Shown: piece by piece, positions 10,321 to 27,342 of the stretch | Layout: every line of letters begins with the position of its first letter | Numbering within the stretch: the first letter of the stretch is position 1 | DNA from: Candidatus Uhrbacteria bacterium | GTDB lineage: Bacteria; Patescibacteriota; Patescibacteriia; GWA2-47-26 | Assembly (NCBI GenBank): GCA_016187515.1 | Contig: JACPJN010000007.1 | Span: forward strand, 68,046 to 132,045 | DNA: 64,000 nucleotides | Direction of reading: 5' to 3' | Position numbers and translations under genes: made by a program | The notes under the pieces: generated by a model | The model's database searches: none | What the model was told of the DNA's origin: nothing | What the model saw: only the letters and a program-made list of their open reading frames with translations

Positions 10321-10405
10321 GGAGTAAATCAAGCGAGACAAGCAAGGCAAGTAAATTAAGTACTGGACTTGCCTGATTTACCTGATTCACTTGATTTACT
10401 GACTT
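10321..10405. repeat. Family-2 palindromic word-repeat (GTAAATCAAG / CTTGATTTAC words)
   Basis: gagtaaatcaagcgagacaagcaaggcaagtaaattaag ... cctgatttacctgattcacttgatttac. Confidence 0.8.
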
Positions 10406-11115
10406 GGCACCGTAAACAGCCGCCCCTCTCCTTTGGGATTATACCCGTTGGAGACCTCGGCGCCGTCTTTATATCCATCGCCGTCCGTATCCGGATTTAA
10501 TGGATCGGTCTGATAAGTAAAAACCTCCTCACCGTCAAACAAGCCGTCATTATCCGAGTCGGGGTTTCCCGGATCAGTGCCGCGGTCTTGTTCTTCTCCA
10601 TTAGTCAGCCCATCGCCGTCAGAATCAGCATCATCACCCTCGGCCTCCTCACGCGCTGGCGGAGCCGCTTCTTCTTCCGGGGGCAAGAAAGACGCGGATC
10701 CTTCCGGGGTTTGTTCCGGGGTCTCCGGAAGCGTGGGGATGGTTGGTTCAACACTCTCGTCAAGCATAAACGCCGCGGATTGCGGAGGAAGCGGCGCCGT
10801 AGCGCGGCGGACAAAACGCAACACCCCCAAAGCCACCCCCAAGACGGCTAAAACTCCCACCACAATTCCGGCAAAAATAATCACTTTCCGAGACGCGATA
10901 AGCGGGGGCTTTACCTCGGCGGCCGTCGGCGTAGGTTGGGGTAGAGGCGGCGCTGCGGATGGGGGCGGCTCGGGCATCGGCGCCGCGGGTTTAACCGCTG
11001 GACCCCCCCCTTCGCGAAGAGGGGGATGGGCCGGTTCTATCTGGGCAAAAATATCATCCGGCTCTTTATCGCCGGTAGGTAGATTAGCCGGAGGCGTGGG
11101 TTGATCGTCAAACAT
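10396..11115 (-). CDS. Paralogous Pro-rich membrane protein with TSP3-like Ca-binding repeats
   Basis: DSDGDGLTNGEE, DSDNDGLFDGEE and DTDGDGYKDGAE repeats, with a central TM helix. Confidence 0.6.
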   Translation of the reverse strand: MFDDQPTPPANLPTGDKEPDDIFAQIEPAHPPLREGGGPAVKPAAPMPEPPPSAAPPLPQPTPTAAEVKPPLIASRKVIIFAGIVVGVLAVLGVALGVLRFVRRATAPLPPQSAAFMLDESVEPTIPTLPETPEQTPEGSASFLPPEEEAAPPAREEAEGDDADSDGDGLTNGEEQDRGTDPGNPDSDNDGLFDGEEVFTYQTDPLNPDTDGDGYKDGAEVSNGYNPKGEGRLFTVPSQ

Positions 11116-11343: not shown

Positions 11344-11373
11344 TTGACACCAGGCCGAAAATAACCTATGCTA
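11344..11373 (+). promoter_or_regulatory. Sigma70-like promoter (TTGACA-17-TATGCT) for the lipoprotein gene
   Basis: cttgaca ccaggccgaaaataacc tatgct. Confidence 0.4.
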
Positions 11374-11403
11374 AAAGTGGCTCTACCAACAAAGGAGGAA
11401 GCC

Positions 11404-13728
11404 ATGCGTACCTTGACAATGACCGCGTTTTTGCTGGCGTTCTTTGCCGCCTGCGGAGGCGGCGACTCCACCACCGCGCAGGAAGGCGAGGGTGAGGAAA
11501 GCGAAGAAGGCGAGGCCGAAGGCGGACGCGAAGGTGAAGGTGAGGGCGAAGGCGAAGGTGAAGGCGAAGGTGAAGGTGAATCCGAGTCCGAAGCCGAATC
11601 CGAGTCCGAGTGCGAACGCGAGGACTGCGACGACGGCGTGGACTGCACTGACGATCGCTGGAACGCACCGTCGTGCAGGTGTATCCACACGATCGTGCCG
11701 GCGCTCTGTGAGCCGGGCGAGTACTGCGACCCCGAGGAGGGTTGCATCGAAACACCTCCGTGCGATGAGCCCTCGGACTGTCCGGACCGCGGCAGTGAAG
11801 ACGGACTTTGCCTGGATGAGGGCTGTGACCTTTCTACGGCTTCGTGCACCTACACGATCCATGACCGCGACCGGGACGGCCACGCGCCTAGGCGATGCGA
11901 AATTGAGGGTGGGGATGACTGCGACGACGATAATCCCCTGATCTATCTCGGCGCGCCAGAGCGCTGTGACGGGGAGGATAACGACTGCAACGGCGAGGTG
12001 GACGATCTTCCCGAGCTTGGCCAGCCCTGTGATGGGCGGGATGCGGACGAATGCGAGGAAGGGGTTTGGGTCTGCGAGGGCGGTGAAGGTGAGAGTGAAA
12101 GCGAGGGCGAATACGACGACCTATATTGCAACGATTTCACCAACGACAGCCGCGAGACCTGCGACGGGCTGGACAACGACTGCGATGGGGAGGTGGATGA
12201 GAACTTCAGATGGCGCGATCCGGAAACCGGATCCCAGCGCGAACTGGGACAATCCTGCACGGTTGGACTTGGTGTTTGCGAAAACACCGGCAATGTGATC
12301 TGCTCCGTATTCGGAGAATCTGCCCGCTGTCCAGTCAGCCCCTTGCCCGCAGAGTCGCCCGAGGTCTGCGATGGGCTGGACAATGACTGCGATGGCATCA
12401 CAGATAATGGTCCGCCCGAGGTCTGCGACGGGGAGGACAACGATTGCGACGGGGAGACGGACGAAGGCGTTGTCAATGCCTGCGGTACCTGCGGACCTGT
12501 ACCATCCGAGATCTGCGATGGGGAAGACAACGACTGCGATGGGGAGACGGACGAGGACTTTGGTGGAACATCCTGTGGTGTTGCTTCCACTGCCTGCATA
12601 GCTGGCGAGATCGTGGAATGCGATTGCTGTGACGGACTGGACAATGATGGGGACGGTTTGATTGACCAAAACGATCCAGATTGCCCGGCCGATGACTATT
12701 GGTGCCCGACCTCCACCGCTGGCGCGCCTGCGGTGCGCCAATCCCATACCGCCATCTGGACCGGGTCCGAAATGATGGTGTGGGGAGGATGGGGTGGTGG
12801 TTCGCCTCTCAACACCGGCGGACGATATGATCCGGAAACCAATACTTGGACTGCGACTTCCACTGTTGACGCGCCTACGCCGCACTGGCTCCATACCGCC
12901 ATCTGGACCGGGTCCGAAATGATGGTGTGGGGAGGATGGGATGATGAATTCAATCCCCTCAACACCGGCGAGCGATATGATCCGATCACCAATACCTGGA
13001 CTGCGATTTCCACTGCTGGCGCGCCTGCGGGGCGCTACTCCCACACTGCCATCTGGACCGGGTCCGAAATGATGGTGTGGGGAGGATGGGGTGGTGGTTC
13101 GCCTCTCAACACCGGTGGGCGGTATGATCCGGAAACCAATACTTGGACCCCGACTTCCACCGCTGGCGCGCCTGTGGCGCGAGGTAGCCACACCGCCATC
13201 TGGACCGGAAGTGAAATGATAGTGTGGGGAGGAGCGGATGATAGCGGTCGTTTCCACACCGGCGAGCGATATGATCCGATCACCAATACCTGGACTGCGA
13301 TTTCCACTGCTGGCGCGCCTGCGGGGCGCTACTCCCACACTGCCATCTGGACCGGAAGTGAAATGATAGTGTGGGGAGGAAGGGATTGGGACTTCATCCC
13401 CTTCAACACTGGCGGACAGTATGATCCGACAACCAACTCCTGGAGCTCGACCTCCACCGCTGGCGCACCTGTGGCGCGCACCAGCCACACCGCCATCTGG
13501 ACCGGGTCGGAAATGATGGTGTGGGGAGGAATGGATAATGGTCGGAATCTGATCAACACTGGCGGCCGGTATGATCCGACAACCGACTCCTGGAGTCCGG
13601 TCTCCACTGCTGACGCGCCTGTGGCGCGTGGCTCGTACACTGCGGTTTGGACCGGGAGTGAAATGCTGGTGTGGGGAGGATATGGTAGTGGTGGTTATCT
13701 CAACACCGGCGGGCGGTACGTGCCCTAG
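11404..13728 (+). CDS. Secreted lipoprotein: acidic low-complexity region, MopE-like Cys-rich repeats (CDGxDNDCDGxxDE), then a Kelch-type beta-propeller with about 9 repeats
   Basis: MRTLTMTAFLLAFFAACGG (lipobox) with AGGAGG 8 nt upstream. Repeated HTAIWTGSEMMVWGG..NTGGRYDPxTNTWT blades. Confidence 0.8.
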   Translation: MRTLTMTAFLLAFFAACGGGDSTTAQEGEGEESEEGEAEGGREGEGEGEGEGEGEGEGESESEAESESECEREDCDDGVDCTDDRWNAPSCRCIHTIVPALCEPGEYCDPEEGCIETPPCDEPSDCPDRGSEDGLCLDEGCDLSTASCTYTIHDRDRDGHAPRRCEIEGGDDCDDDNPLIYLGAPERCDGEDNDCNGEVDDLPELGQPCDGRDADECEEGVWVCEGGEGESESEGEYDDLYCNDFTNDSRETCDGLDNDCDGEVDENFRWRDPETGSQRELGQSCTVGLGVCENTGNVICSVFGESARCPVSPLPAESPEVCDGLDNDCDGITDNGPPEVCDGEDNDCDGETDEGVVNACGTCGPVPSEICDGEDNDCDGETDEDFGGTSCGVASTACIAGEIVECDCCDGLDNDGDGLIDQNDPDCPADDYWCPTSTAGAPAVRQSHTAIWTGSEMMVWGGWGGGSPLNTGGRYDPETNTWTATSTVDAPTPHWLHTAIWTGSEMMVWGGWDDEFNPLNTGERYDPITNTWTAISTAGAPAGRYSHTAIWTGSEMMVWGGWGGGSPLNTGGRYDPETNTWTPTSTAGAPVARGSHTAIWTGSEMIVWGGADDSGRFHTGERYDPITNTWTAISTAGAPAGRYSHTAIWTGSEMIVWGGRDWDFIPFNTGGQYDPTTNSWSSTSTAGAPVARTSHTAIWTGSEMMVWGGMDNGRNLINTGGRYDPTTDSWSPVSTADAPVARGSYTAVWTGSEMLVWGGYGSGGYLNTGGRYVP
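12700..13728 (+). repeat. Near-identical tandem DNA repeats of about 150 bp encoding Kelch blades
   Basis: cacaccgccatctggaccgggtccgaaatgatggtgtggggagg recurs with few changes. Confidence 0.8.
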
Positions 13729-13821: not shown

Positions 13822-16800
13822 TTAATCTAAGGCCGCCCCCTCCTCGACTAGCACTCCACCGGAAAGAGTGGAGATGTTGCACTGATTGTCACAATAGGTA
13901 CAGCCCACTAAACCATAGCCCGGCGTACACCGAGTCCCATTGGAAGTTCCTTCATCACATTCCTCTGGATCAGTACACCGGCCACGACCGCAATCCTGGT
14001 CGCGCCGACAGGTCACGCCGTCACGATTACGATCGCCAGTGCCCACACACACCAGTCCCTGATTGAATCCGTCGCCACATTTTGCGTGCTTGCAGTCGTT
14101 AATGCAGCCATCCGCATTTTCCGCCGCATCGTTTTGCCCGTCGTTCGTGGTTCCATCGTCACACTGCTCATTTCCTTCGCGCGCGCCATTGCCGCATTGT
14201 CCTTGGGCAACTGTAGTGAGACCGCCCCAACGACATGGACCACCACTACGGCAGGCCTGCCGCCAGAGATACGGGTAGCCCTCGGGCTCTGTAAACTGTT
14301 GACTGTCATAAACATGCGTTCCATCCCACTGGATTGGCCCAGTAAATTTACAGCTACCAAATGACGTATCGCAATCAGAATCTTGGCGGCAGGGCTTTCC
14401 AAAATCCGAAGCCCCCCACACCCACATACACACCTGTGGACTCTGGCGAGTATCTCCCGCTTCGCACTGCTCATTCCACTCTTCCTGTATCTCATTGTCT
14501 CCGCACCGCGCCCCTGGCCCGGAGCAGTCAAACCGACAACACCCATAATCGCCATTGACACATGCTGCACCGCTGGAATTTGTAGAATCACATACTTCGG
14601 GTCCATTGCGCGTACCGTCGCCGCAATAGGCACTAAGTGCGGTTGCTGAACATTGACCCCACGGGAAACAATTATTATCCTCGGTGCAGATATTTCCCTG
14701 ATTAGGCCCCCCGATGCAGGTCCTAGCGCATACCGTATTGCACTTGCCATACTGACCATTTAACAGCCCATCATCACATACTTCGCTTCCTTCTCTTATG
14801 CCATTACCGCAGATTACGCCGCCTTGGCATATGTCAAGGTTGGATGTCGGGTTTTGGGATCCACCCCATATTTGCCAGTCAGTCACCTGCGGAGCATCAT
14901 TCCACTCGCACCTATTCGTGCACGCCCGTACTGCCTGGCACTGCGATGAAAGAATACAAACCCCTTCATTGTCAGCGCAGTTTTCATCATTAACACACTC
15001 CTTCGAAGGATTCAAACTGCATGAACGCAACGGAACACATGAAGAACCTCTCGCATGCAACGTACAGGTTGAACCAGAATCTGGGAACCTTGGGGCTGTT
15101 GATATTACCCCGGTTTCTGGATTACACCTTTGCCGAAATCCCCCCTCAAAGGGGGCACCAGGGTCACCACAGTATCCAAACCAACGGGCTTGCTGGACCT
15201 CTTCCTGCCCCACTTCGCAGAATTCCTGGCAATTATTCACCCCGCACGAAACCCCGGGATAATTTGCGCAGGTTCCGTCCGGGAGACATTCACCACGTTC
15301 AAGAATTCCATTGCCGCAGGTCGCCGTGGCATTGGACCATAATCCCCCGGCTGGCGCGCCCGGCGCGCTCACCCAGGAACAATTGCTCGGGGTTAGCAGG
15401 TTGGTTCCCGCCGGATCAAAATTAAACACTTCCCAGCGGCTCTGCCCGGGAGCTGGCGGACGATACAGCAGTTCAAAATCTACGCCCAATTCATAGTCCA
15501 CTGCCCCAATCGCGCGATACTGATACACGTGGGATCCAGCCGGACAGCGGTAGGTTTGGGTCTGTTCATTCCAGCAAGTCGCGGGATCAAATTGCCCGCG
15601 CTCGCCTGGAATCGCGGCACAGCCCGGCGCGAAGCTATTGAGCGGATCTTGCGGCAAGGAGGCGCCCAATGTTGCGCCAAGCGTGGCCTGCCAAGAAGGC
15701 CATTTGGAGGTGGACATGGAACGGATAAAAGTGCCGGCCTGAAGCGGCGGATAGCGTCCGTGAGTATTGCGGTAATCCTCCAGTGCGGATTGTATCGAAC
15801 TGATATGATTTAAACGCAATAGATCTCGGCGCAGCTTGTCTCGGTTGGAGTTCTCGACATTCACATTAAGCTGGAAGTTGGAAACAAACTGGTCAAACAC
15901 TTGCTGCATCGCGCTGGGCGCGTTTTCAGAAAGCGAAAGCACGTAGATATTGCTGTACACTACTTTTAATGTGGGGACGTACCTATCAGTAACCGCGTTT
16001 GTGCCAGCGACATACACCGTATTCCGGTCCCGGATCGCCTCATAACCATCCACCCCGGGATTAATTGGCGCCGGAGTTCCAGTAAAGCCCATTTGCTCAT
16101 ACCAAGTTCTGACCGGCAAACGCCTCGGGTTTGGAAATACCCGAATTCCAATGGCCTGCTGTTTTTCTGCTGATTCAACCAAAAGATACTCCTTCAGCGG
16201 AGCAGGGCCAGTATGGCTGGTGGCGATACGGAAGGTGTCCAAAGTAACCGGCGCACCCTCGTCCGCGCCTGCCGCGGGAGGACGAATCGCGCCCGGGTAA
16301 ATTAAAGCCGGCAAATCGCCTGCGAGGCCCTCCTCACCACTGTCGCGGCAGTACCAAGTGCGAAAATTCATGGGGTCTCCTCCGCCAAGGAGTGCGCCTT
16401 CGCGATCCTCAAACCGCGGCAAGGGGTGCTCAATACGCGATGGCCAGGGATTTTCGCACAGCGTGGTAATAAATTCCGCGCTCCCCTCGCGCACCGCGTC
16501 CTGATGATCCTCCGGCTGCGGAAGCGCGCTGGCGTCAGTAATTGTGGCAGTGGCATTCACGTCCGTCTCGCCATTGCGATTCCCGGCAGTTACGGTTTGA
16601 TCTGGATCAGCGTTGATCGGATCCGCAGCGTTGATGGGATCCGGCTCATTGGTAACGCTGGCCACGGTATTTTCCGCTGATCTCCAGGACCAGGCCCAGG
16701 AATATCCGGTTGTCCGCTGCAGCGCCTGCCCGCTGCTGGAGAGCGCCTCGGCCCGAACTTGGGCCTGCTGCCCGGGACGAGAAAAACCCGCGCCGCCTTC

Positions 16801-19800
16801 TCCTTCAAAAATGCTCACCGCTTCATCCGCGCCAGTTACGTTAACGCGCACGTTTTCCACGGTACAGATCTCGGATCCGGTAGTGAAGTTCCAACTTGAA
16901 TCTGTTCCGCCTTCGGCAGCGGGACCGCGGAAGGCCACGCCGAAAATCGAGCGCACTCCAGAAGCGATCAAATCATTAAGGTTCGGGTCGCCAGCAATGG
17001 TGATCTGATAATCTGTCGCGTTATCCAAAATCCGCGAAGGTTGCAGGACTAAACGACTCCCCTGTGCTGCCGATTCAACCGACGCCTTTAAGCTCAAGGA
17101 CGGATCAGCGCACCACACCGAATTTCTTGCCCGGCCCTGAAGAGTCAGGCCATCCGGACACGTCGCAGTGTTTTCAACACGCTTGGCAATTCCGATCGCT
17201 TGATCAAGATTTGCGGAATCCATGGGTTGATCAAAAGTTACTTCCAAAAGTCCATTGGGACAGGCGTCTGGCGTATTGATGCCCGGCACGCGCTCCACAA
17301 TTTTCGGGCGAAGATAACAACAGTTGTCGCTCCCGCGGCCCACGGCCTCGGATGGCCCTTGTCCGGGCGTTGGACAATCGGCTTCGCTGCGGGCCACGCA
17401 AAATACGGTAATACTGGCGCTGCCCGGCGCGCCCGCTTGTCCCTCCACCGCCGCCTCTACCGCCACCGTACTCCAAGGATTAGGCGGAGCGCAGACCGGA
17501 AAATTCTCATCCGTACAATTGCCATTGCTGCTACAGGGCGCGCGCGGTTCCTTAAATTCTCCGGTCTCTTTGCGGCAGAACTTCCGAATCCCCAAGGCCC
17601 TGGCTTGCTGAATTGGATCAATGCGCCGAGGCGACTCCGCAACCGTCCCTTCATTAAGACAGCGCGCGGAACAGCCGTCTCCGGCAGCCGTATTGCCATC
17701 ATCACAGTCCTCAAAACGATCAATCCTCCCATTGCCGCAAAACGGCGAAGGAGTTCCTTCATTAAGACACCGGGATGAACAGCCATCGCCATTGGCGCGA
17801 TTATTTAACTGATCGCATTCTTCACCGGCCTCCACTAATCCGTTGCCGCAGGTGGAAACCGGAAGAGTGCCTTTTAAAAGACACGTGGCTGGGTCGCAGA
17901 ATTCCGAAAGAAGGGGGGCACCTAAAAGGTCGCGGTAACGCTGCTGGTCTTCGGGATCACATTCTTCCCCGCGATCAATCTGCCCGTTTCCGCAAGTAGT
18001 CGCCCGAGAAGTCCCTTCATTCCGACACTGCGTAGAGCAGCCATCGCCCGGTAAAACATTGCCGTCGTCGCAATCCTCGCCATTTCCGGGTTCCGGGTCT
18101 CCGCCACTGCCGCAGCAATTGGTTTGCTCCGGAGCGACACAGCGCGCCAGCGCTCCGGCGTGCAGACAACTCGCGGTGCACCCGGGCAAGCCGGGCGGGT
18201 CGCATTCCTCGCCCGGATCAATAATACCATTCCCGCAGGCGAATCTTCCGAGAATTCCCGCGCTGGATCCCTCGTTTAAACACTGCGCTAAACAGCCATC
18301 GCCATCTATTAAATTTCCGTCATCGCAATCTTCCGCGTATTCCCGCACCCCATTGCCGCAGGAAGGCAAACGATCCACTCCGGTCCGCACTACTCCGGCA
18401 ATCATGGTATTGCCCACCACGCCGGCGACCCGATCATCTTCTTCAAGTTCCGGATCGTCAATCTTCCAACCCCAATCGTAGGACAGCGAATTTAAGCGCT
18501 GGCCCTGCGGATCGCAGGCATCCGGAGCGCTCCGCGGCTCCGCGGAAAAACTCGCGCGCGCGCCGATAAGATAGAGCGCGGCTTGCGGAGGGCTTAATTC
18601 CACGCGATCAACCTGACAGGATGACGCGCCGGTTTTAAAGGTCCAAGAAAAAGTATTGCACTGCGCGCCCGCGCACTTCCCTGGCCCGGGAGCGAGCATC
18701 GCTCCGGTTATCGCGTCACGGCCGGCCCAATTGTAGGAAAAGTTCAGTCCGGCCAGCGGCTTGCCCGGTACGGAGCTGTCGCGGCGGCTTGAATGTAGGC
18801 CAGCGCTGCCGCCTTTGAGTAAAACCCGATAAAAAGTATTGGGCAGTAAGAGATCTTCTCGCGCCGAGGTGGCCGGGTTATCGGTAAGTCCGATCTCCAG
18901 GGTATTTTCTGCGCTCTTCCAAGAAAGTGCGGGGCTCAAAACTCGCTCCGCCAAGCGGCCGGGTTTAAGACAGCGGACGGTGCAGAGCGGATCACGCTCG
19001 CCCCCATCGCAACCGATATCTTCGCCATTGTCCAGCACGCCATTGCCGCAAAGCGCGGGTTCGGATCCCTCGTTTAAGCACTGCGGTAAGCAGCCATCGC
19101 CGGAAAGGCGATTGCCATCATCACAATCTTCCGCGTACTCGCGCAAACCATTGCCGCATTGCGCGAAACGCGTTCCTTCATTAAGACAATTGGGGGAGCA
19201 GCCATCGCCCGCGTTGGTATTGCCGTCATCGCAATCCTCCGCTTCCGAGGCAAGGATCCCATCGCCGCAAGCCGGTACTGACCCGGCGGCAATTGAACCT
19301 TCATTAACACATACTTCGGAACAGCCGTCTCCGGGCCGCAGATTGCCGTCATCGCAGTCCTCGCCCAGTTCAATGCGGCCATTGCCGCAGCCCTGACCTC
19401 CGGCGGAAGAGGGACGACGCGTGCCGGTCCACTGACAAATACTGGTGCAGAGATTGCGCTTGGCCGGGGTGTTTAAAAGCGGCGAATTAGGGTCGCACTC
19501 CTCGCCCGGATCAATCTGGCCATTGCCGCAAAGCAGCGGACTTACCGGATTGCCCCGCCTTAAACAGTCCTGCGGATCGCACCACGACGCAAATTCGTGA
19601 TCAAAATTCACTTCACATTCCTCGCCCGCTTCCAAACGGCTATTGCCGCAAACCGCGAAGTTCGAACTGGTCCCCTCGCGAAGGCATTGCGCGGAACAGC
19701 CATCTCCGGCTTGTCGATTCCGATCATTATCACACTCCTCACCCGGATTAATTTTACCGTTTCCACACAGCGCGGGTCCGGTTCCCTCGTTTAAACACTG

Positions 19801-22800
19801 CGACGAACAGCCATCGCCGTTTTCCAGGTTGCCATCATCACAATCTTCTCCGCGGTCAAGACAGCGGCCGCCTTGGCAGCTCTCTCCTGGCCCGCACTCG
19901 GAAGCATTGCGGCACGCCCGTCCGTCTCCGCAGCGCAGAGAAAAGTTTGATCCCTCATTAAGACAAACTGCGGAACAGCCGTCTCCGGAAGTCGTGTTGC
20001 CATCATCACACTCTTCTCCCGTCTCCACGCTGCCATTGCCGCAAGGCACGGCCCAGAGTAACGCGTTTTGAACATTGGTCACGCTTTGGGGATGCAAAGT
20101 GTTTGAGGAGGTAAACATGGCCACATTAAACCGCGCGGCAATCTTGGCGTTGGTACAGGCCTCTCCGCAAGCCGGCCACCATTGTATTACTTGCGGGTCC
20201 ATAAATGAAATCTTGAGCTTCCCAAAACCGGTGGTCCGTGGGGGCTGCGGCGGAGTATGCGCGCGGACTCTGATCTCTTCGCCTTGGGTGTCTTCCAAGG
20301 CAATTACGGTTACGGTCCAGGGCATGTGCTTACAATACCCTCCAACACAGGCCTCGGTCACGCAAGTATTGGGCTGACCGCCGCAGTCGGCATCTACCTG
20401 GCACGGCGCGTCGTAATTGTTGGAACAATGGCTGTACCCGATCGCGCACTCCGCGTCTTCACTACAGGCCTTGCCGATCGCCGGGGAAATTCCGCTGGAA
20501 TTATAAGTAACCGCCGCGCGCTCCGGATTCTCCGTATCATAGACATCCCAGGCCCACGAATAGTCGTCCGACGACGGCACTACGCAAGGATCGTCAAGCG
20601 CCACGGGAATTGCTAAATAATCAATCGGCTCATTTTCCGTAGTGGCCTCATAAGGGCTGGGCACCACCGCGATCCCGCCGACTTGACAAAGATTATTGTC
20701 CGGATTGGACTCGTTTTTGGTTTGAAACGCAAAACAGTACGCGGCGCGCGCGTCTCCGCAGCGGGATAAGCCGTCTGGAAGCGGGATCATGGGCTGGCCT
20801 TGAAGAGCGCCGCGATCTTGCGCGGTAATTCCTCCGGTCCCGCCCAAAAGTACCACGCGATACCAGGAACCGGCTGAAAAATTATCCGACAGCCAGAAAC
20901 TAAATCCTAATCCGCCGGAATACGGCCCAAATTTACGGCCGAGCGCCTGATCTTCAACTTGGCTGCAGGCCTCCCCTTCAATCTGGACATCATCAACATA
21001 AACCGCGAAGTCCTCTCCGGAACTCGCCTCCTCGCCAACCTCATAAGGATCGCCTTCCAAAAATACGCGCACATAGCCGGGAGCATTGCCATTAGGACTG
21101 GCATCAAAGGTCATGGTTACCGACACCGGCTGCCACTCATTGGTGAGCGTAATTTCGGACCGAACTTTTTGCCAAAAACCACGGGTGGCCAGACAGGTCC
21201 TTTGTCCGGCATTGGTTTGGCTCGCGCACCCGGTGTCCGCAGTACAAGCCACTCCGCCGGATATTCCGCCGCAACGCATTCCGTCAGCGCCGCCCGCGCG
21301 TTGAATTAAAATTCCGGCGCGCTTCCCCGCCCCCGCGGCATCAACCGCTTTCATCCACGCGGTTGCCGTATATATTTTCCCGCTGGTATCGGCAATGGCA
21401 TTGGCTTGGTACCCAAACCAATGCTCATAATTTTGTTGCAGTCCGCGAGTATCTCTCCATCCTGGGCCGGTGTCGTTGTCCAGCTTGGTAAGGGCGAGCG
21501 CAAAATTGCCCGGATCCGCACTAGAAGCGCCGCGCCCAGCGCCTAGCACGGTTTCCACCCCCAACAAATCCTCGTGGCGAAGGTTTGTCGGCGGATCCAG
21601 CGTGGGCTCTGGCGGGCGGCCCCACACGGCAGTATCCGCGGTGAAATTCGGACTTCCAAAAGTGGTGTCCGCGCCATTCAACAGTTCGGTCGGCGCCGTG
21701 CACTTTTGGAGCTTAATCGTCTGCGAATTTAAGGTCGCCGGATCAACCCGGGCGTCCGGATTAAAACTCACTGCCACGGCCGCGTTAACGCATACTCCGG
21801 TATTTGATCCTCTTCCGGATTCGACAGCCGGCGACGGCGAAGGCGGATATTGCGGAAAACCTTCCGCGTCGGCTGCTTTATCGCATCCTTCAAACACCGT
21901 CGGGGTAAGCGGGGCCTGGGAGGTGGTAAACTGCCAAGCAAACGCGGACTCCCCGGGCTGCGCGCCAGCGCAGTCCGCCCTACAAGTTCCGTCTCCACAG
22001 CAAGTCAGACCTCCGAGCGCGGCGCAATCCAAGCGCGCTTCATCAGGGGCCGGCAACCGGCAATCACCAACCAAAAACGTCCGCAAATTCGAAGCGCGCG
22101 TGATCTGGCCTCCTCCAGCTTGCGGAAAATCATTTTGTATAATTACCTCTCCGGCTGGAGTCCCAGCCACGGTGTTTCCGGGCACTTGCGCGCATACTTC
22201 TTGCGCGTCCCAGCCACCGCGCGGACAAGCATCCAAACGGATACCTCCGACATTGGTGAGCGTGGCCGGTAAAGTCGGCGCCCAGGACTGATCCGCGGAA
22301 CTCCTGCGCGCCGTAAATAGCGCCCCGCGGCCGGAAGCCGGCGCGGATCCAAACCGATCTCCAAAAATGCTGACATTGGTAAACGTTGGGCCGGAGGCCG
22401 GCTCAATACAAGCTAAAAATGGCGCGGCTGACTCTTGATCTAAAACATCAAAATCCTTGGGACTGGACTGCTGACGATCATAACGCTGCACATAAAGGTA
22501 GGCGCCATCATCAAAAAGAAGATCGGAGGCGCTGCCATCTTCATCCGCGTCGTGGATATCCAAAATGCGCGGCACTTTAACCGTGATCTGTATTGGACTC
22601 CACCAACTGCTCCCGCATTGCGAAGGAAAGTCCACGTTTCCCTGCACTCCTCGCCCATCGGAAGTAACAAACCAAACCATTCCGGGGGTATCGCCGAAAT
22701 TCCGTCCGGAAATGGTGCACCCGGCCCCTGGCCCGCCGCGCGCCGGATTATCTTCCGGCGCGCCCGCGCAAACTACCGTCGTAATAATTGGCAAAGTGCC

Positions 22801-24813
22801 GGCATCCGGAGAAAGCACGGTAAAGGGAAGGGCGTTGGAGGGAACTTTTTCGGTGTTTTCAACTTGCACCTGGGTTGGGCCAAATGCCAGCGCCGGCACG
22901 CGGCTTAAAATGGCAGTCGCGGACCAGGCGTCCACGGCGCCCGGCTGTCCGCCAAACCGCGCTTGCGCCCGCAGAATCTGCTTGCCCAGGCGGCGGGTCT
23001 GCTCGCCAAACTGCACACCGGTAATATTCACTGGCGCATTCCAAAGCCCGGCGATTGGATTCACGCTGCAAATCCCGGGGTGCTCCACCTCGTTTACTTC
23101 AAATAAACCGGTCGGAGTTGACGATCCGCGCGGCGGGGGATGAACCGGAACGATCGGGCCCCGCGAGTCATTGCTGGTGTCGCGGCACAGATTATCATTG
23201 TCCGCACACCCATCAGCGACCACCGTAACCGGCCCGACCTGCGCGCCCTCCGGAAGACCGACTAAAATATAATTATCAGACCAGGTCGTGTTACCCGCGC
23301 AGGCCTCCGGAGCTTGAGCGCGGACTCCGTTATGGAAAAATGCCGCGCCCGGGGTCTGGCCAAAATTTAATCCGGCGACCGTCACGAGTGTCCCGGCTTT
23401 ACCGTCTCCCGGAGAAATGCCGGTAATCGTCAAGGGCGTAGTGCACTCTTTATCTCCATCACCATCTAGATCCGTGCAAACCCCGCCGGAACATTGGATA
23501 TTATCCGTACAACTGCTGCCGTCGCACAATCCGCAGCCGGAGGGGCCGTCTGCCGCGCTATCGCAATTCGGCCCATCTTCATCATCATCTTGAAGCGGGA
23601 ACCCTAACTGGTCGCGATTAAAGCAGTGACTGGGACGGACGATCACCCGCACCGGAGCAGACCATACCGCGTTATCATCAATATCAAAAGCGCGCGCGCG
23701 CAACTGATGCTGGGCCGGAGCCGGCGGATTCGCCGGAAAACATGGTAAGGTTAAAATAATTTCCAGCGGATAAGTGCCTTCCGGCGGAGTAAGCAGGCCG
23801 TCTAGAAGTGCCGTCCCATCCGCATAGATTTCCACGTGCTCCACTCCCCCATCATCTTTGACTCTGACCTGAACCGGCACGCAAGTGTCCACTTCCACTG
23901 CCGCGCCGTCATCCGGCGACTCAATAGTTACTTCCGGCGGCGCCACATCAATAATACTTCCCGAACGAAACTCTACCCGACAAGTTGGCGCAAATCCGCC
24001 GCAAAGCAAATCCCGGCCATCAAAGCGTTTGACGCCGTCCGCCCCGTCTCGGATCTGCACCACAAATTCAGTATCCGCGTCAAAACAGCGCCGATCTTGA
24101 TTCGGTTCCGGACACGCCGCGGATGGGCGCAATTCTACGATATTGCCAACCACGGCCGCCGGCTCCAAGGCAACCGCTGCGCCGCTGTCTTTGCGCGTAA
24201 GGTTCAGATTTCCGGCCAGGGTCTCCGGGTCGGGCGCGCCGCTAAAAAATACCCGTACCACAATGTTGCGAATCGGCACCGCTCCGGAAGGGGCAATGCG
24301 CCGCACGATAAACGCGTCGGACGGTAAAAACGGGCAATCCGGTCCGGGACAGCGAACATCCGCGGGAATCGTGAGCGGCCCTCCGGCCGCTAACTGTAAA
24401 CGATTCAATACGAATTGGACAATTCCAAACGCCGAAAGAATAATCGCGAGTCCAATCACGGAATTAACCAGCACTTTTTTGGCCTTGTCAATTTGCTCTT
24501 CATTGCCGGCCGAAGTCAGCCATAAAAAACCGCCGTAAAGAATCAAGGCCACGGCCACCAGACCGAGAAAACCCAGCGCCACGCGAATGATGCGCGCCAC
24601 AATCACTCGCGGATCAGCCGTGGGCAAAATCAGTCCGGCTTGCCCGGGAACCGCCGCGATCTCTGCGCCGGTTTGAATCTGGGAAGGCAGCGGCACGCCT
24701 TGAGCCAGCGCCGTCGGAATGGAGAATGCAGAATGAAGAATGAAGAATAAGAAAATCACTACAAACCAGCGAAATATCCATCGGCAATGTTCAATCCGGC
24801 ATTCTAAATTCAT
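13822..24813 (-). CDS. Giant (3663 aa) secreted or surface protein: N-terminal T4SS-pilin-like (VirB2/TrbC-like, two TM helices) domain, Ig-like domains, about 20 Myxococcus-type cysteine-rich repeats, and an internal type IV pilin/GspG-like globular segment
   Basis: Uninterrupted 10,992-nt ORF. N-terminus is signal peptide, then LGFLGLVAVALILYGGFLWLTSAGNEEQIDKAKKVL, then IGLAIILSAFGIV. Contains CGNGxxExGEECDDGNxxxGDGCS repeats and SIQSALEDYRNTHGRYP. Confidence 0.9.
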   Translation of the reverse strand: MNLECRIEHCRWIFRWFVVIFLFFILHSAFSIPTALAQGVPLPSQIQTGAEIAAVPGQAGLILPTADPRVIVARIIRVALGFLGLVAVALILYGGFLWLTSAGNEEQIDKAKKVLVNSVIGLAIILSAFGIVQFVLNRLQLAAGGPLTIPADVRCPGPDCPFLPSDAFIVRRIAPSGAVPIRNIVVRVFFSGAPDPETLAGNLNLTRKDSGAAVALEPAAVVGNIVELRPSAACPEPNQDRRCFDADTEFVVQIRDGADGVKRFDGRDLLCGGFAPTCRVEFRSGSIIDVAPPEVTIESPDDGAAVEVDTCVPVQVRVKDDGGVEHVEIYADGTALLDGLLTPPEGTYPLEIILTLPCFPANPPAPAQHQLRARAFDIDDNAVWSAPVRVIVRPSHCFNRDQLGFPLQDDDEDGPNCDSAADGPSGCGLCDGSSCTDNIQCSGGVCTDLDGDGDKECTTPLTITGISPGDGKAGTLVTVAGLNFGQTPGAAFFHNGVRAQAPEACAGNTTWSDNYILVGLPEGAQVGPVTVVADGCADNDNLCRDTSNDSRGPIVPVHPPPRGSSTPTGLFEVNEVEHPGICSVNPIAGLWNAPVNITGVQFGEQTRRLGKQILRAQARFGGQPGAVDAWSATAILSRVPALAFGPTQVQVENTEKVPSNALPFTVLSPDAGTLPIITTVVCAGAPEDNPARGGPGAGCTISGRNFGDTPGMVWFVTSDGRGVQGNVDFPSQCGSSWWSPIQITVKVPRILDIHDADEDGSASDLLFDDGAYLYVQRYDRQQSSPKDFDVLDQESAAPFLACIEPASGPTFTNVSIFGDRFGSAPASGRGALFTARRSSADQSWAPTLPATLTNVGGIRLDACPRGGWDAQEVCAQVPGNTVAGTPAGEVIIQNDFPQAGGGQITRASNLRTFLVGDCRLPAPDEARLDCAALGGLTCCGDGTCRADCAGAQPGESAFAWQFTTSQAPLTPTVFEGCDKAADAEGFPQYPPSPSPAVESGRGSNTGVCVNAAVAVSFNPDARVDPATLNSQTIKLQKCTAPTELLNGADTTFGSPNFTADTAVWGRPPEPTLDPPTNLRHEDLLGVETVLGAGRGASSADPGNFALALTKLDNDTGPGWRDTRGLQQNYEHWFGYQANAIADTSGKIYTATAWMKAVDAAGAGKRAGILIQRAGGADGMRCGGISGGVACTADTGCASQTNAGQRTCLATRGFWQKVRSEITLTNEWQPVSVTMTFDASPNGNAPGYVRVFLEGDPYEVGEEASSGEDFAVYVDDVQIEGEACSQVEDQALGRKFGPYSGGLGFSFWLSDNFSAGSWYRVVLLGGTGGITAQDRGALQGQPMIPLPDGLSRCGDARAAYCFAFQTKNESNPDNNLCQVGGIAVVPSPYEATTENEPIDYLAIPVALDDPCVVPSSDDYSWAWDVYDTENPERAAVTYNSSGISPAIGKACSEDAECAIGYSHCSNNYDAPCQVDADCGGQPNTCVTEACVGGYCKHMPWTVTVIALEDTQGEEIRVRAHTPPQPPRTTGFGKLKISFMDPQVIQWWPACGEACTNAKIAARFNVAMFTSSNTLHPQSVTNVQNALLWAVPCGNGSVETGEECDDGNTTSGDGCSAVCLNEGSNFSLRCGDGRACRNASECGPGESCQGGRCLDRGEDCDDGNLENGDGCSSQCLNEGTGPALCGNGKINPGEECDNDRNRQAGDGCSAQCLREGTSSNFAVCGNSRLEAGEECEVNFDHEFASWCDPQDCLRRGNPVSPLLCGNGQIDPGEECDPNSPLLNTPAKRNLCTSICQWTGTRRPSSAGGQGCGNGRIELGEDCDDGNLRPGDGCSEVCVNEGSIAAGSVPACGDGILASEAEDCDDGNTNAGDGCSPNCLNEGTRFAQCGNGLREYAEDCDDGNRLSGDGCLPQCLNEGSEPALCGNGVLDNGEDIGCDGGERDPLCTVRCLKPGRLAERVLSPALSWKSAENTLEIGLTDNPATSAREDLLLPNTFYRVLLKGGSAGLHSSRRDSSVPGKPLAGLNFSYNWAGRDAITGAMLAPGPGKCAGAQCNTFSWTFKTGASSCQVDRVELSPPQAALYLIGARASFSAEPRSAPDACDPQGQRLNSLSYDWGWKIDDPELEEDDRVAGVVGNTMIAGVVRTGVDRLPSCGNGVREYAEDCDDGNLIDGDGCLAQCLNEGSSAGILGRFACGNGIIDPGEECDPPGLPGCTASCLHAGALARCVAPEQTNCCGSGGDPEPGNGEDCDDGNVLPGDGCSTQCRNEGTSRATTCGNGQIDRGEECDPEDQQRYRDLLGAPLLSEFCDPATCLLKGTLPVSTCGNGLVEAGEECDQLNNRANGDGCSSRCLNEGTPSPFCGNGRIDRFEDCDDGNTAAGDGCSARCLNEGTVAESPRRIDPIQQARALGIRKFCRKETGEFKEPRAPCSSNGNCTDENFPVCAPPNPWSTVAVEAAVEGQAGAPGSASITVFCVARSEADCPTPGQGPSEAVGRGSDNCCYLRPKIVERVPGINTPDACPNGLLEVTFDQPMDSANLDQAIGIAKRVENTATCPDGLTLQGRARNSVWCADPSLSLKASVESAAQGSRLVLQPSRILDNATDYQITIAGDPNLNDLIASGVRSIFGVAFRGPAAEGGTDSSWNFTTGSEICTVENVRVNVTGADEAVSIFEGEGGAGFSRPGQQAQVRAEALSSSGQALQRTTGYSWAWSWRSAENTVASVTNEPDPINAADPINADPDQTVTAGNRNGETDVNATATITDASALPQPEDHQDAVREGSAEFITTLCENPWPSRIEHPLPRFEDREGALLGGGDPMNFRTWYCRDSGEEGLAGDLPALIYPGAIRPPAAGADEGAPVTLDTFRIATSHTGPAPLKEYLLVESAEKQQAIGIRVFPNPRRLPVRTWYEQMGFTGTPAPINPGVDGYEAIRDRNTVYVAGTNAVTDRYVPTLKVVYSNIYVLSLSENAPSAMQQVFDQFVSNFQLNVNVENSNRDKLRRDLLRLNHISSIQSALEDYRNTHGRYPPLQAGTFIRSMSTSKWPSWQATLGATLGASLPQDPLNSFAPGCAAIPGERGQFDPATCWNEQTQTYRCPAGSHVYQYRAIGAVDYELGVDFELLYRPPAPGQSRWEVFNFDPAGTNLLTPSNCSWVSAPGAPAGGLWSNATATCGNGILERGECLPDGTCANYPGVSCGVNNCQEFCEVGQEEVQQARWFGYCGDPGAPFEGGFRQRCNPETGVISTAPRFPDSGSTCTLHARGSSCVPLRSCSLNPSKECVNDENCADNEGVCILSSQCQAVRACTNRCEWNDAPQVTDWQIWGGSQNPTSNLDICQGGVICGNGIREGSEVCDDGLLNGQYGKCNTVCARTCIGGPNQGNICTEDNNCFPWGQCSATALSAYCGDGTRNGPEVCDSTNSSGAACVNGDYGCCRFDCSGPGARCGDNEIQEEWNEQCEAGDTRQSPQVCMWVWGASDFGKPCRQDSDCDTSFGSCKFTGPIQWDGTHVYDSQQFTEPEGYPYLWRQACRSGGPCRWGGLTTVAQGQCGNGAREGNEQCDDGTTNDGQNDAAENADGCINDCKHAKCGDGFNQGLVCVGTGDRNRDGVTCRRDQDCGRGRCTDPEECDEGTSNGTRCTPGYGLVGCTYCDNQCNISTLSGGVLVEEGAALD

Positions 24814-24832
24814 AATTCTTCATTCTCAATTC

Positions 24833-26896
24833 TCAAAATCCGCACGGCCCAGCTTGCGCCACGCCATTGCAACAATAAGGAGTGGCTGCCGTGAGATCTC
24901 CTTGACACTCGCCTGACGGGAAATAACAATTCTGGAAAAGATCTTTAACGTCCGAGTCAATCCGACTGGTATAATCGGTTTCTTCCCAAAGTCCGCCGTT
25001 TAAAATATCCGCCCGGGTTTGTCCATACGGGAAATCATCCAAATCCTCGGCCAGATTTTGACTGCCCACAGTCCACCAAGTGTCCCAGAACCCGCCGGTT
25101 AGCTTATCAGTGCCGGCCAAGTTCAGATTTCTGGAATTAAGCGTCGCGGCCGCCATGGCTCGGTTAAAGGTAATGCCCAAGGTCGTCTGTAAAGGCACTC
25201 CCGGCGTAACTGCACCGGCGGTCACCGTGGGAGTCGTGAGCGTTACCTCGGGCGCCCCGAGCAAAATCTCGTGGGAAGTATAAAATGACCAACGCACGTT
25301 ATCACCTCTGGCCGGATTTTCCGCGTTACGGCTAAAGAAAGTCGTCTCTGCTAAATCACCCGGGCCTTGCGCGGCGCCATTGCCATTGCCATCCAGCGAA
25401 TTGCCCGCGACATCTTCTATGCCGTCCAAGCCACCGGACGAGGTCGGACCGCCTTGGGAAGACAGCGTGGCGGCCAGGACCTCCCCGCGAATCTGACGGC
25501 CGCCCGGCAAGCAAAACACGTCTCCGCCGCAAGAATTAACCGCGCACCGATCTTGACTGATAAATTCCGCGGTCTGGTATTGATTGGCCAGCTCAAACCG
25601 ACCGGCCACAAAACGATACTGATTATCCGGGGCTGGCTCGGAGACCCGCATGATCTGATAGGTTCCCTTCTTAATCTCCCCTTGGTCAGTAACCGCGGTT
25701 ACTCCCGAGGCCACGGTCGGCAGAATCGGTTCGCTGAAATTAATCTGGACAATGGAGTTGCGCGGAACATCTTTTCGGCAGGGCGGACTGGCGCACGCGC
25801 TTTCATCTCCGGCATTATCCGGCAGCGGAATTACGCTGGTGATGCGCGGCGGAGTCAAATCTAAAAAGGTGCCGACTTCAAACGACCACTGATAATCCGG
25901 AAAGCGCCCGGCAAACGCGGGTAGGCCGTTTAAGAGTTTAATCCCCTCCCGCCGACAATTACCTCCGCGGGAAGCGGTGCCGCATAAATAGACCGTGTAG
26001 GGGGTGTCTTCTTCCGCGCTGCCAAAATAAGCCCGCTGCGCGTGGTTATCGCGAGATACCGGCGTGAGCACCAAAGTGCGCAAATCGGTAAAACTTACCA
26101 GCACGTCCGCGTCTCCGGCCGCGCTTCCCAAATACCGATCCTTATCGCTTTCGCGCACCGAACCCTCAATATCGGCGGTGCGGATAATTTGAATCGCGTC
26201 CGGACGCAGCGTCAGTCCCGGAACTGACTTACGTGTATCAATTACGCCATCTTGATCCGCGTCCACCGCGTCAAAATACTGCGGGTTACCTTGCGCGTCT
26301 TTTGCGAGAGTATCCGCAAAACTCGCCGGATCAACCGCGTCTTTAAAAGTAATCAAAATTCGCACGTTGCGCGGAACTCCGCGTTGTCCGCGAGTGGGAT
26401 AATGGCTCTCCACCATGCCGGAACCGAGCGCTCCTCCGCCAACTCTTGCGGCGGCAGCGGAGGGCGGCGGCAAGGGCGGCGCCTCCAATCCGGAGGTCAG
26501 CGCGCGCAGCACAAACAAAACAATGCCATAAGCCGAAAGAATAATCGCGAGCCCAATGGTCGCGTCAATCAACACCTTTTTGGCTTTTTCAATCTGCTCT
26601 TCATTGCCGGCCGAGGTCATCCAAAGATACCCGCCCCAAAGAATTAAGATGAGCGCCACGACCCCTAAAAACCCTAATGCCACTTGAATGATCTTAGCCA
26701 CAATCACCCGCGGGTCACTCACGGGCAAGATCAGTCCGGCCTGCCCGGGGACTGCCGCGATCTCCTCCCCGGTGCGGATCTCGAGGGTAGGCGGAATTTG
26801 CGCCGCGACAAAAACCGGCCATACCAAAAGTACGCCTAGGGCTATGGTAATGATTATCGCCTGAAATCGACGCATGTAATCCCAGATTATGCTCAA
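24833..26896 (-). CDS. 687-aa secreted protein with the same N-terminal T4SS-pilin-like domain plus Ig-like domains; paralogous to the N-terminus of the giant protein
   Basis: TGEEIAAVPGQAGLILPVSDPRVIVAKIIQVALGFLGVVALILILWGGYLWMTSAGNEEQIEKAKKVLIDATIGLAIILSAYGIV. Sits 20 nt upstream of the giant gene on the same strand. Confidence 0.85.
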   Translation of the reverse strand: MSIIWDYMRRFQAIIITIALGVLLVWPVFVAAQIPPTLEIRTGEEIAAVPGQAGLILPVSDPRVIVAKIIQVALGFLGVVALILILWGGYLWMTSAGNEEQIEKAKKVLIDATIGLAIILSAYGIVLFVLRALTSGLEAPPLPPPSAAAARVGGGALGSGMVESHYPTRGQRGVPRNVRILITFKDAVDPASFADTLAKDAQGNPQYFDAVDADQDGVIDTRKSVPGLTLRPDAIQIIRTADIEGSVRESDKDRYLGSAAGDADVLVSFTDLRTLVLTPVSRDNHAQRAYFGSAEEDTPYTVYLCGTASRGGNCRREGIKLLNGLPAFAGRFPDYQWSFEVGTFLDLTPPRITSVIPLPDNAGDESACASPPCRKDVPRNSIVQINFSEPILPTVASGVTAVTDQGEIKKGTYQIMRVSEPAPDNQYRFVAGRFELANQYQTAEFISQDRCAVNSCGGDVFCLPGGRQIRGEVLAATLSSQGGPTSSGGLDGIEDVAGNSLDGNGNGAAQGPGDLAETTFFSRNAENPARGDNVRWSFYTSHEILLGAPEVTLTTPTVTAGAVTPGVPLQTTLGITFNRAMAAATLNSRNLNLAGTDKLTGGFWDTWWTVGSQNLAEDLDDFPYGQTRADILNGGLWEETDYTSRIDSDVKDLFQNCYFPSGECQGDLTAATPYCCNGVAQAGPCGF

Positions 26897-27033
26897 ATTT
26901 CCTAATGATTAGTATAGCATAAAATAAAAAACCCCGCACCAGCCGTCTACGCAGGGCGCGGGCTCCGAGGAGTAGGGACAAAGTGCTGGTTTCATCCGGC
27001 CTAGGTCCCACAAACCCCGAGAAACAGACGGAA

Positions 27034-27342
27034 CTATCCACCTGCAAATACTCTGAAGCCATGTGACATGAGTTCTGTCTCTGCTGGAGTGGCTGTGCAC
27101 AGACCGTACAAGAAGGCGGTGAGCACTACCGTGATAAACGCACTGCTAGAGAGATTGGGATACCTCTCTACGAAGGCAATCACTACCCAGACCAGCAATC
27201 CAGTACCGGGGAACATAAGGAGCAAACCTAGACCTTCATCGAGATTCGCCATGGAGACCTCCTCGATTATCAGTGTACAAAAGAAGATGATAAATGTCAA
27301 CGCATACTTTCTGCCGTTCCACCTCACCCATCCATACGACAC
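27034..27342 (-). CDS. Small hydrophobic membrane protein, hypothetical
   Basis: 102-aa ORF with 3 predicted TM segments. Confidence 0.4.
   Translation of the reverse strand: MSYGWVRWNGRKYALTFIIFFCTLIIEEVSMANLDEGLGLLLMFPGTGLLVWVVIAFVERYPNLSSSAFITVVLTAFLYGLCTATPAETELMSHGFRVFAGG

Follow-up and report, generated by a model that had tools for sequence, protein, structure and literature searches.

The gene pair

The DNA analysed here, called the window, is a 64,000-nucleotide (nt) stretch (contig JACPJN010000007.1, positions 68,046 to 132,045) from a 'Candidatus Uhrbacteria bacterium' metagenome-assembled genome (MAG) of groundwater origin (sample series SRR121134xx) of the candidate phyla radiation (CPR), or Patescibacteria. 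Its minus strand carries two genes, P1 and P2, whose products begin with a membrane hairpin that sequence profiles assign to the VirB2-like pilins of type IV secretion systems (T4SS), and continue as a mid-size and a giant extracellular protein. An earlier note on this DNA, made from the sequence alone, had described two tandem, same-strand open reading frames (ORFs), and both are indeed present. By the ORF list and its translation, the P1 ORF (24833-26896, minus strand) counts 687 amino acids (aa) from a TTG codon, which is the length the note gave; the ORF stands, while the protein is likely 680 aa, since the ATG at 26875 fits the public calls (NCBI and Logan both start there), giving P1 as 24833-26875. 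P2 (13822-24813, minus strand) encodes 3663 aa from an ATG. It lies downstream of P1 and begins 19 nt past the P1 stop codon, so that the 20-nt gap of the note is corrected by one. P1 bears the NCBI locus tag HYW17_03320 and is annotated there as 'hypothetical protein'.

That this locus is an artefact, i.e. a misassembly, a fused gene call or a pseudogene, can be excluded for practical purposes. The identical contig and locus were recovered in assemblies of 12 sequencing runs, and therefore the giant ORF is no assembly artefact. The P2 reading frame is open over 10,989 nt, and its architecture is collinear with those of relatives at 28-44% identity (44% over ~3000 aa for the giant of related locus L007, and 28-34% over two long stretches for that of L005); the pair itself recurs at most related loci (below). 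Nothing was found to support an artefact; in one relative (L089) the giant gene seems broken.

Just upstream of P1, at 27034-27252 on the minus strand, is a 72-aa ORF that codes for two hydrophobic stretches and is called as a gene in the public record. It is followed by what looks by eye like a GC-rich hairpin with a T-run (26925-26965), a site absent from the terminator scan list; if this terminator is real, the P1-P2 pair begins a transcription unit of its own. Scans of the window for tRNAs and Rfam families found nothing.

Pilin hairpins at the N-termini

A hydropathy scan gives three hydrophobic segments per protein, all N-terminal, namely a signal peptide and two transmembrane helices (TM1 and TM2), and AlphaFold models show a helical hairpin with pLDDT >90 in both proteins. 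The order of signal peptide, helix, charged loop and helix that the earlier note had read from the letters thus agrees with both scan and models, and the two motifs it quoted, TGxEIAAVPGQAGLILPxxDPRVIV and SAGNEEQI(D/E)KAKKVL, occur in P1 and P2 alike. The predicted signal peptide of P1 covers aa 1-25 (26801-26875, minus strand), with an AXA-type site between VAA and QIPP; sequence, hydropathy and a model helix at residues 2-25 support it. That of P2, from sequence and hydropathy, covers aa 1-37 (24703-24813, minus strand), with the site between TALA and QGVP. The pilin domain of P1 is assigned to aa 26-135 (26471-26800, minus strand) and comprises a pre-helix segment, TM1, the SAGNEEQIEKAKK loop and TM2, on the evidence of the Pfam profile T4SS_pilin (PF18895), a model hairpin with helices at residues 55-87 and 92-130, and conservation. 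The corresponding P2 domain, from the same profile and the model hairpin, is aa 38-145 (24379-24702, minus strand).

Against the curated cut-off (gathering score) of 26.6 bits for PF18895, P1 reaches 31.3 bits. For P2 the score is 26.1 bits over the full-length protein, just below the cut-off, 30.0 for aa 1-420 and 33.8 for the isolated mature domain, so the Pfam search proposed in the note matches both N-termini above threshold, P2 as a sub-sequence. The first 163 aa of P2, used as query, retrieved 32 homologues; PF18895 is found in all 32, most of them are stand-alone proteins of 113-156 aa, and some are named 'pilin' by NCBI. Both window hairpins align end to end with stand-alone Patescibacteria pilins of 113-177 aa, and all invariant and near-invariant residues of these small pilins are kept in both. 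In alignment A1 (30 members) PF18895 matches 30 of 30, and the TrbC/VirB2 family PF04956 matches 13 of 30. By these profiles the N-termini of P1 and P2 are VirB2-like T4SS pilin domains, as had been proposed. Structure prediction, the second check named in the note, gives the confident hairpin, while the fold search with it is non-specific: the fold is generic, with no specific match to solved conjugative pilins, and the pilin assignment therefore rests on sequence profiles. When the pilin alignment was used as a profile against PDB sequences, there were 0 matches, and thus no significant match to solved pilins.

Size sets the pair apart from T4SS pilins, which have ~70-130 mature residues and no further domain: 545 residues come after helix 2 in P1, and ~3500 in P2.

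Extracellular domains

All sequence past helix 2 is extracellular in both proteins. The P1 ectodomain (24836-26470, minus strand) is predicted to consist of a Pro-rich disordered linker, three immunoglobulin (Ig)-like beta modules of the Big_5 type and a Cys-rich C-terminus, from Big_5 matches, a model with pLDDT 85.9 and Foldseek, whose best matches are the S-layer protein SbsC, the BIg domains of LdtMt2 and antibody Fabs. P2 (all positions on the minus strand) starts with a Big_5-like module common with P1 and then a Big_7 domain (aa 293-340), together at aa ~165-400 (23614-24321; BLASTP of P1 against P2, and Pfam). The first Ig module of P1 and this Big_5-like module are homologous, with weak similarity in BLASTP; the earlier claim that Ig-like modules are shared by both proteins holds for the folds, which Big_5 and the P1 model confirm, and only weakly for the shared module. 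An IPT/TIG region follows at aa ~462-960 (21934-23430), with Pfam matches at aa 462-535 and one more stretch and with estimated outer limits. Two blocks of Cys-rich acidic repeats of the myxo_disulf_rpt/DUF4215 type (CGNGxxExGExCD) lie at aa ~1560-1960 (18934-20136) and ~2140-2400 (17614-18396), both from profiles and the motif scan, and a further Big_5 Ig-like domain at aa 2502-2622 (16948-17310; Pfam). TIGR02232, the profile of this Cys-rich acidic repeat family, matches P2 with 266.8 bits over 11 stretches, and DUF4215 matches 8 stretches; there are 12 CGNG..E.CD motifs and, in the whole P2 ectodomain, 196 cysteines. The long tail of Cys-rich repeats and other domains foreseen for the larger protein is thus borne out by TIGR02232, DUF4215, TIG, Big_7 and Big_5, and the suggested Big/Ig and TIGR02232 searches found their matches. 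The C-terminal region (aa ~3130-3663, 13825-15426), delimited by Cys density at 7-11 Cys per 100 aa, had no Pfam or TIGR02232 match; by eye its repeats resemble degenerate DUF4215 units.

A segment at aa ~2985-3120 of P2 (15454-15861), DKLRRDLLRLNHISSIQSALEDYRNTHGRYP...LPQDPLN...YQYR, is suggestive of the globular head of GspG-type pseudopilins (T2SS/T4P) and falls short of membership in that family. Its T2SSG (PF08334) match has E=0.013 and 16 bits, under the cut-off of 21, and the PDB profile search returned GspG chains only, at E 0.55-1.6. A homologue search with aa 2780-3140 found two proteins only, and the segment is kept in other giants (L005, L007, P0153, P0154 and P0296). If the resemblance were confirmed, a type IV-pilin-like head would sit within a T4SS-pilin-anchored protein.

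Another observation by eye concerns P0296, a 3300-aa giant from another genome, which near its C-terminus has a candidate von Willebrand factor A (vWA) MIDAS-like motif, VFDVSRSMG (DxSxS). This region differs from P2 and, if real, would support variable adhesive end modules. Taken together, the ectodomain modules (Ig-like strings, TIG, Cys repeats and the candidate vWA) suggest, by analogy, surface or adhesion proteins, of which they are typical.

A conserved two-gene operon

The P1-P2 pair is a conserved two-gene operon across the ABY1 class. In five of five relatives on long contigs, a gene for a 572-753-aa protein with PF18895 and Big_5 is followed directly, on the same strand, by a giant gene; these giants measure 1859-4284 aa and combine PF18895, Big_5 and TIG, with Big_7 or Laminin_G_3 in some. 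The P1 family comprises at least 420 clusters at 90% identity, from Uhr-, Magasanik-, Falkow- and Buchananbacteria among others, and relatives are encoded in at least 508 GTDB species-representative genomes. Of 80 GTDB loci retrieved, 68 carry the pair, and in 8 of the remaining 12 the contig breaks off. The median P1-P2 intergenic gap at these loci is 3 nt; the median for their complete giants is 2851 aa, and the longest has 3468 aa. The related locus L086, in the 1.17-Mb CP129476.1, also has the pair.

In two genomes the mid-size and giant genes are separated by one more gene, for a pilin protein of 360-382 aa. This third PF18895 protein (L006, 11930-13012; L008, 12100-13248) has a more divergent hairpin, 42-60% identical to the others compared. 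Many GTDB records with the locus (L012, L014, L017 and others) are titled 'uncultured Gammaproteobacteria bacterium' or 'Candidatus Methylomirabilis sp.'; these are probably mislabelled names of third-party annotation MAGs.

Conservation of the hairpin

The N-terminal domains of P1 and P2 are 73% identical in amino acids over 100 aligned aa, and 77% over a 73-aa core. Conservation by region, taken as mean pairwise identity across 73 P1-family members, is highest in the hairpin (58.7%) and its cytoplasmic loop (60.6%); the Ig modules have 34-48%, and signal peptide plus linker 29%. Hairpins are more alike within than between genomes. The two hairpins of one genome have a median identity of 64%, while cross-genome medians are 53% for mid-size against mid-size, 53% for giant against giant and 52% for mid-size against giant, and the closest giant hairpin is that of the same genome's own giant in 32 of 69 cases. 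Recent gene conversion was considered as the source of this likeness and rejected: the window hairpins, at 73% aa and 70.7% nucleotide identity, have only 54% identity at third positions, and those of L007 combine ~93% aa identity with 64% at third positions. Such low third-position identity beside high aa identity means that selection, and not recent gene conversion, keeps the hairpins alike.

These patterns fit hairpins that need to pack with one another or with a shared partner, and on that basis the hairpin appears to be more than a passive anchor. They bear directly on the reading in which it has been exapted as a plain N-terminal anchor, P1 and P2 being independent wall-spanning surface proteins, S-layer-like or adhesin, in the manner of Ebh. 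The resemblance of the P1 ectodomain to the S-layer protein SbsC, the generic hairpin fold and the location among core-genome genes for envelope and division (LytR, S26 peptidase, TSP3 proteins, FtsA/FtsZ; below) all speak for it. A hairpin that is the best-conserved part of the protein, cytoplasmic loop included, would be unusual in a passive anchor, and the hairpins of the two partners vary in step within genomes although their synonymous sites have diverged; a purely passive anchor fits these data poorly, and we judge it improbable.

Genomic neighbourhood

The flanking ORFs of related loci were clustered and then annotated with Pfam. Conserved upstream families are histidyl-tRNA synthetase (55 loci), signal peptidase S26 (45) and YqeY (42), with LytR and Der on the opposite strand. 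Downstream come two single-pass membrane proteins with thrombospondin type 3 (TSP3) repeats, then YbeY, diacylglycerol kinase (DAGK), FtsA and FtsZ; of 19 relatives whose sequence extends far enough downstream, 17 have TSP3 proteins after the giant in the same orientation. The window retains the downstream order (TSP3, TSP3, YbeY, FtsA, FtsZ), and its upstream synteny is already broken. Its two TSP3 proteins (10396-11115 and 9414-10316, minus strand), recognized by Pfam and synteny, are each predicted to be single-pass membrane proteins with extracellular TSP3 (Ca-binding) repeats, and have Pro-rich linkers. They may belong to the same surface module as the pair.

Two other genes of this segment depart from the order in relatives. 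A gene for a 786-aa predicted lipoprotein (lipobox FFAAC) with acidic EGE repeats, MopE-type Cys-rich metal-binding motifs and a Kelch beta-propeller (11368-13728, plus strand) is inserted convergently between the giant and the TSP3 genes, and has no counterpart among the conserved downstream families of relatives. A 23S rRNA-intervening-sequence protein (PF05635; 8517-8894, minus strand) lies between YbeY and FtsA, where relatives usually have diacylglycerol kinase.

The conserved order P1-P2-TSP3-TSP3-YbeY-DAGK-FtsA-FtsZ, with LytR and signal peptidase upstream, might be taken to mean that the pair is a module for cell-envelope biogenesis or division, for example a scaffold tied to FtsA/FtsZ and LytR, with no part in host contact. 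Synteny among housekeeping genes of reduced genomes is often historical, however, and it is broken on the upstream side in the window; giants that range from 1544 to >4000 aa with variable modules suit an exposed, fast-evolving surface protein better. A role of this kind seems very improbable.

Relation to secretion genes

The earlier note had advised looking for virB4, virB6 or pilus genes nearby, and this check came out negative. No VirB4, VirB6, coupling-protein or other T4SS gene was found in the window or in the 10 kb past one of its ends, and at the 85 related loci examined the conserved neighbours out to 10 kb from the pair include no T4SS gene. The pair is therefore not encoded with T4SS machinery genes such as virB4, virB6 and virB3; its setting belongs to the core genome and is no T4SS island.

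This carries little weight, because stand-alone pilin arrays of the same lineage are also unlinked to T4SS genes. The most similar stand-alone pilins occur in arrays of 5-6 genes (L092, 9082-11621, and L094, 9342-11768), which are preceded by an NTP-transferase and a solute-binding protein and followed by unannotated proteins of 687 and 794 aa; within 10 kb of these two arrays there was no recognizable T4SS gene. The L092 array belongs to the same assembly as the P1/P2 pair of L042. Elsewhere in the genome, VirB4 is present in three of four pair-carrying ABY1 assemblies of Table S1 of PMC12102498, and the fourth, at 619 kb, may be incomplete.

Non-linkage thus says little about whether P1 and P2 could serve, as minor or tip subunits, in a true T4SS pilus, whose VirB4 and VirB6, encoded elsewhere, would extract the hairpins from the membrane. 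In a polymer of stand-alone pilins, the hairpins would make up the first, distal layer and so show the giant ectodomain at the tip, as a T4SS counterpart of modular type IV pilins that replaces a VirB5 or PrgB adhesin. The C-terminus of canonical pilins faces the outside of the pilus, which suits such a display. The hairpins are indistinguishable by sequence from stand-alone pilins, conserved loop included, and one assembly has a P1-type hairpin with 62-63% identity to two pilins of the 6-gene array in the same genome. The VirB4 genes just mentioned also count in favour, as do the published absence of PrgB-like adhesins and the essentiality of pilin arrays in Southlakia (both below). Weighing on the other side, beyond the weak point of genomic location, are the lack of any precedent for a VirB2 pilin with a C-terminal domain, let alone one of 3500 aa, and the fact that a T4SS pilus is so far unseen in any Patescibacterium. 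We regard such a pilus as the chief rival of the reading favoured below, if on balance an unlikely one.

The hairpin as a building block

Searched with a hairpin profile, 1.84 billion proteins gave 86,508 cluster representatives with E<=1e-3. The top matches are polyproteins with up to 17 concatenated hairpins and single-hairpin giants of 2047-3300 aa. P0156 (552 aa), P0159 (1775 aa) and others have 2 to 17 concatenated T4SS_pilin hairpins per polypeptide; in P0156 six successive hairpins are clearly seen. Such proteins are apparently pilin arrays fused into polytopic polyproteins. The PF18895 hairpin is clearly a reusable building block in Patescibacteria, found stand-alone, concatenated or fused to giants.

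The full-text literature searched, a limited collection, had no description of pilin-ectodomain fusions, and the conserved modular giant form of the Patescibacteria VirB2-like pilin is apparently undescribed; some family members are automatically annotated as 'pilin' or 'Ig-like domain-containing protein' in public databases.

A proposed mechanism

We tentatively favour, at slightly below an even chance, the reading of P1 and P2 as modular VirB2-like pilins, the hairpins of which would assemble together in the membrane and bear adhesive fibrils. Both proteins would be exported by the Sec pathway, with the signal peptide cut by signal peptidase I, and would then be retained by the hairpin in the cytoplasmic membrane, with the short charged loop SAGNEEQIxKAKK on the cytoplasmic side. 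The C-terminal part would stand outside the cell: in P1 ~545 aa in three Ig-like modules, and in P2 ~3500 aa made up of Ig and TIG modules, the acidic Cys-rich repeats and further domains. The hairpin would act as a sequence-specific assembly module, by which P1 and P2 pack together into a membrane-embedded oligomer, a step that we infer from the conservation patterns; the stand-alone VirB2-like pilins of the same cell would probably join it. This oligomer would bear a short stalk (P1) and a very long, disulfide-stabilized fibril (P2), which by a rough, uncomputed estimate from domain counts could approach 100 nm when fully extended, and which would serve surface or host attachment in a likely episymbiotic, monoderm bacterium.

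Several points weigh against this proposal. A polymer or oligomer of a Patescibacteria VirB2-like pilin would be without experimental precedent, and no adhesin domain of known specificity was identified. The episymbiont lifestyle of Uhrbacteria is an assumption. The within-genome likeness of the hairpins could also reflect older gene conversion or a shared constraint of lipid or insertion.

A bolder version would make P1 and P2 the first modular VirB2 pilins, whose hairpins nucleate or cap a T4SS-type pilin-lipid filament that bears a very long, disulfide-rich tip adhesin, or else build a pilin-type filament independent of any T4SS. We see this as speculative and rather unlikely. With the T4SS-type filament, the missing adhesin of the Patescibacteria T4SS would be supplied; with either filament, the ABY1 class would have an overlooked, conserved, core-genome host-contact organelle.

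In the one system tested, Patescibacteria T4SS genes and VirB2-like arrays are essential for epibiotic growth (PMC10633639, PMC12102498). A pilin hairpin fused to Ig-like and Cys-rich ectodomains in at least 508 species representatives is an obvious adhesin candidate, and the pair offers concrete handles for epitope tagging, electron cryotomography and proteomics.

Comparison with known systems

Patescibacteria VirB2-like pilins, their arrays and their essentiality in Southlakia epibionticum are already published (Wang 2023, PMC10633639; Quinonero-Coronel 2025, PMC12102498; PMC12857230). These three papers treat the pilins as small proteins, and the 2025 survey among them detected no PrgB-type adhesins in Patescibacteria. 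P1 and P2 share with these pilins the phylum, tandem paralogy and a homologous N-terminal domain of signal peptide, two helices and short charged loop. The known ones have ~110-160 aa with nothing after helix 2 and are often near virB4, whereas P1 and P2 have 545 or 3500 extra residues and a conserved housekeeping neighbourhood without T4SS genes; pilin arrays average 25% identity within an array, as against 73% for the P1/P2 hairpins. With the canonical VirB2/TrbC/TraA pilins of diderm T4SS the pair has in common the hairpin membrane topology and PF04956 cross-matches among homologues. It differs in having no significant sequence match to solved pilins and no specific fold match, and in its monoderm host, its huge C-terminal fusions and the lack of cyclization evidence.

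Pam pili are CPR-specific surface structures of Ig-like domains implicated in host contact, which is their likeness to the present pair; they are built by donor-strand exchange with membrane-anchored chaperones, occur mainly in Saccharimonadia and Microgenomatia, and are without the T4SS-pilin hairpin (bioRxiv 10.64898/2026.03.03.709456). No chaperone genes are among the annotated conserved neighbour families of the pair, unannotated neighbours not having been compared with PamC/D. Membership of P1 and P2 in this class is unlikely, a judgement made from the description in that paper and not by sequence comparison with PamA/B.

Nearer in design are two groups of better-known surface proteins. 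(i) In modular type IV pilins, such as PilB and PilC of Streptococcus sanguinis and the minor pilins CofB and TcpB, a polymerization module is likewise fused to an adhesive C-terminal module. The likeness is one of analogy only, as class and machinery are unrelated: these pilins have a class III signal peptide, a single N-terminal helix and processing by PilD, whereas P1 and P2 have a type I signal peptide and a two-helix hairpin. (ii) Ebh is a giant membrane-anchored Gram-positive adhesin, and like it and the S-layer protein SbsC, P1 and P2 extend long strings of Ig-like domains from a monoderm surface. SbsC is the top structural match of the P1 ectodomain, with low TM-scores that reflect generic Ig strings only. 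The giant Gram-positive and S-layer proteins are held by S-layer homology (SLH) domains, LPXTG motifs or C-terminal transmembrane anchors, in contrast to the N-terminal pilin hairpin of P1 and P2.

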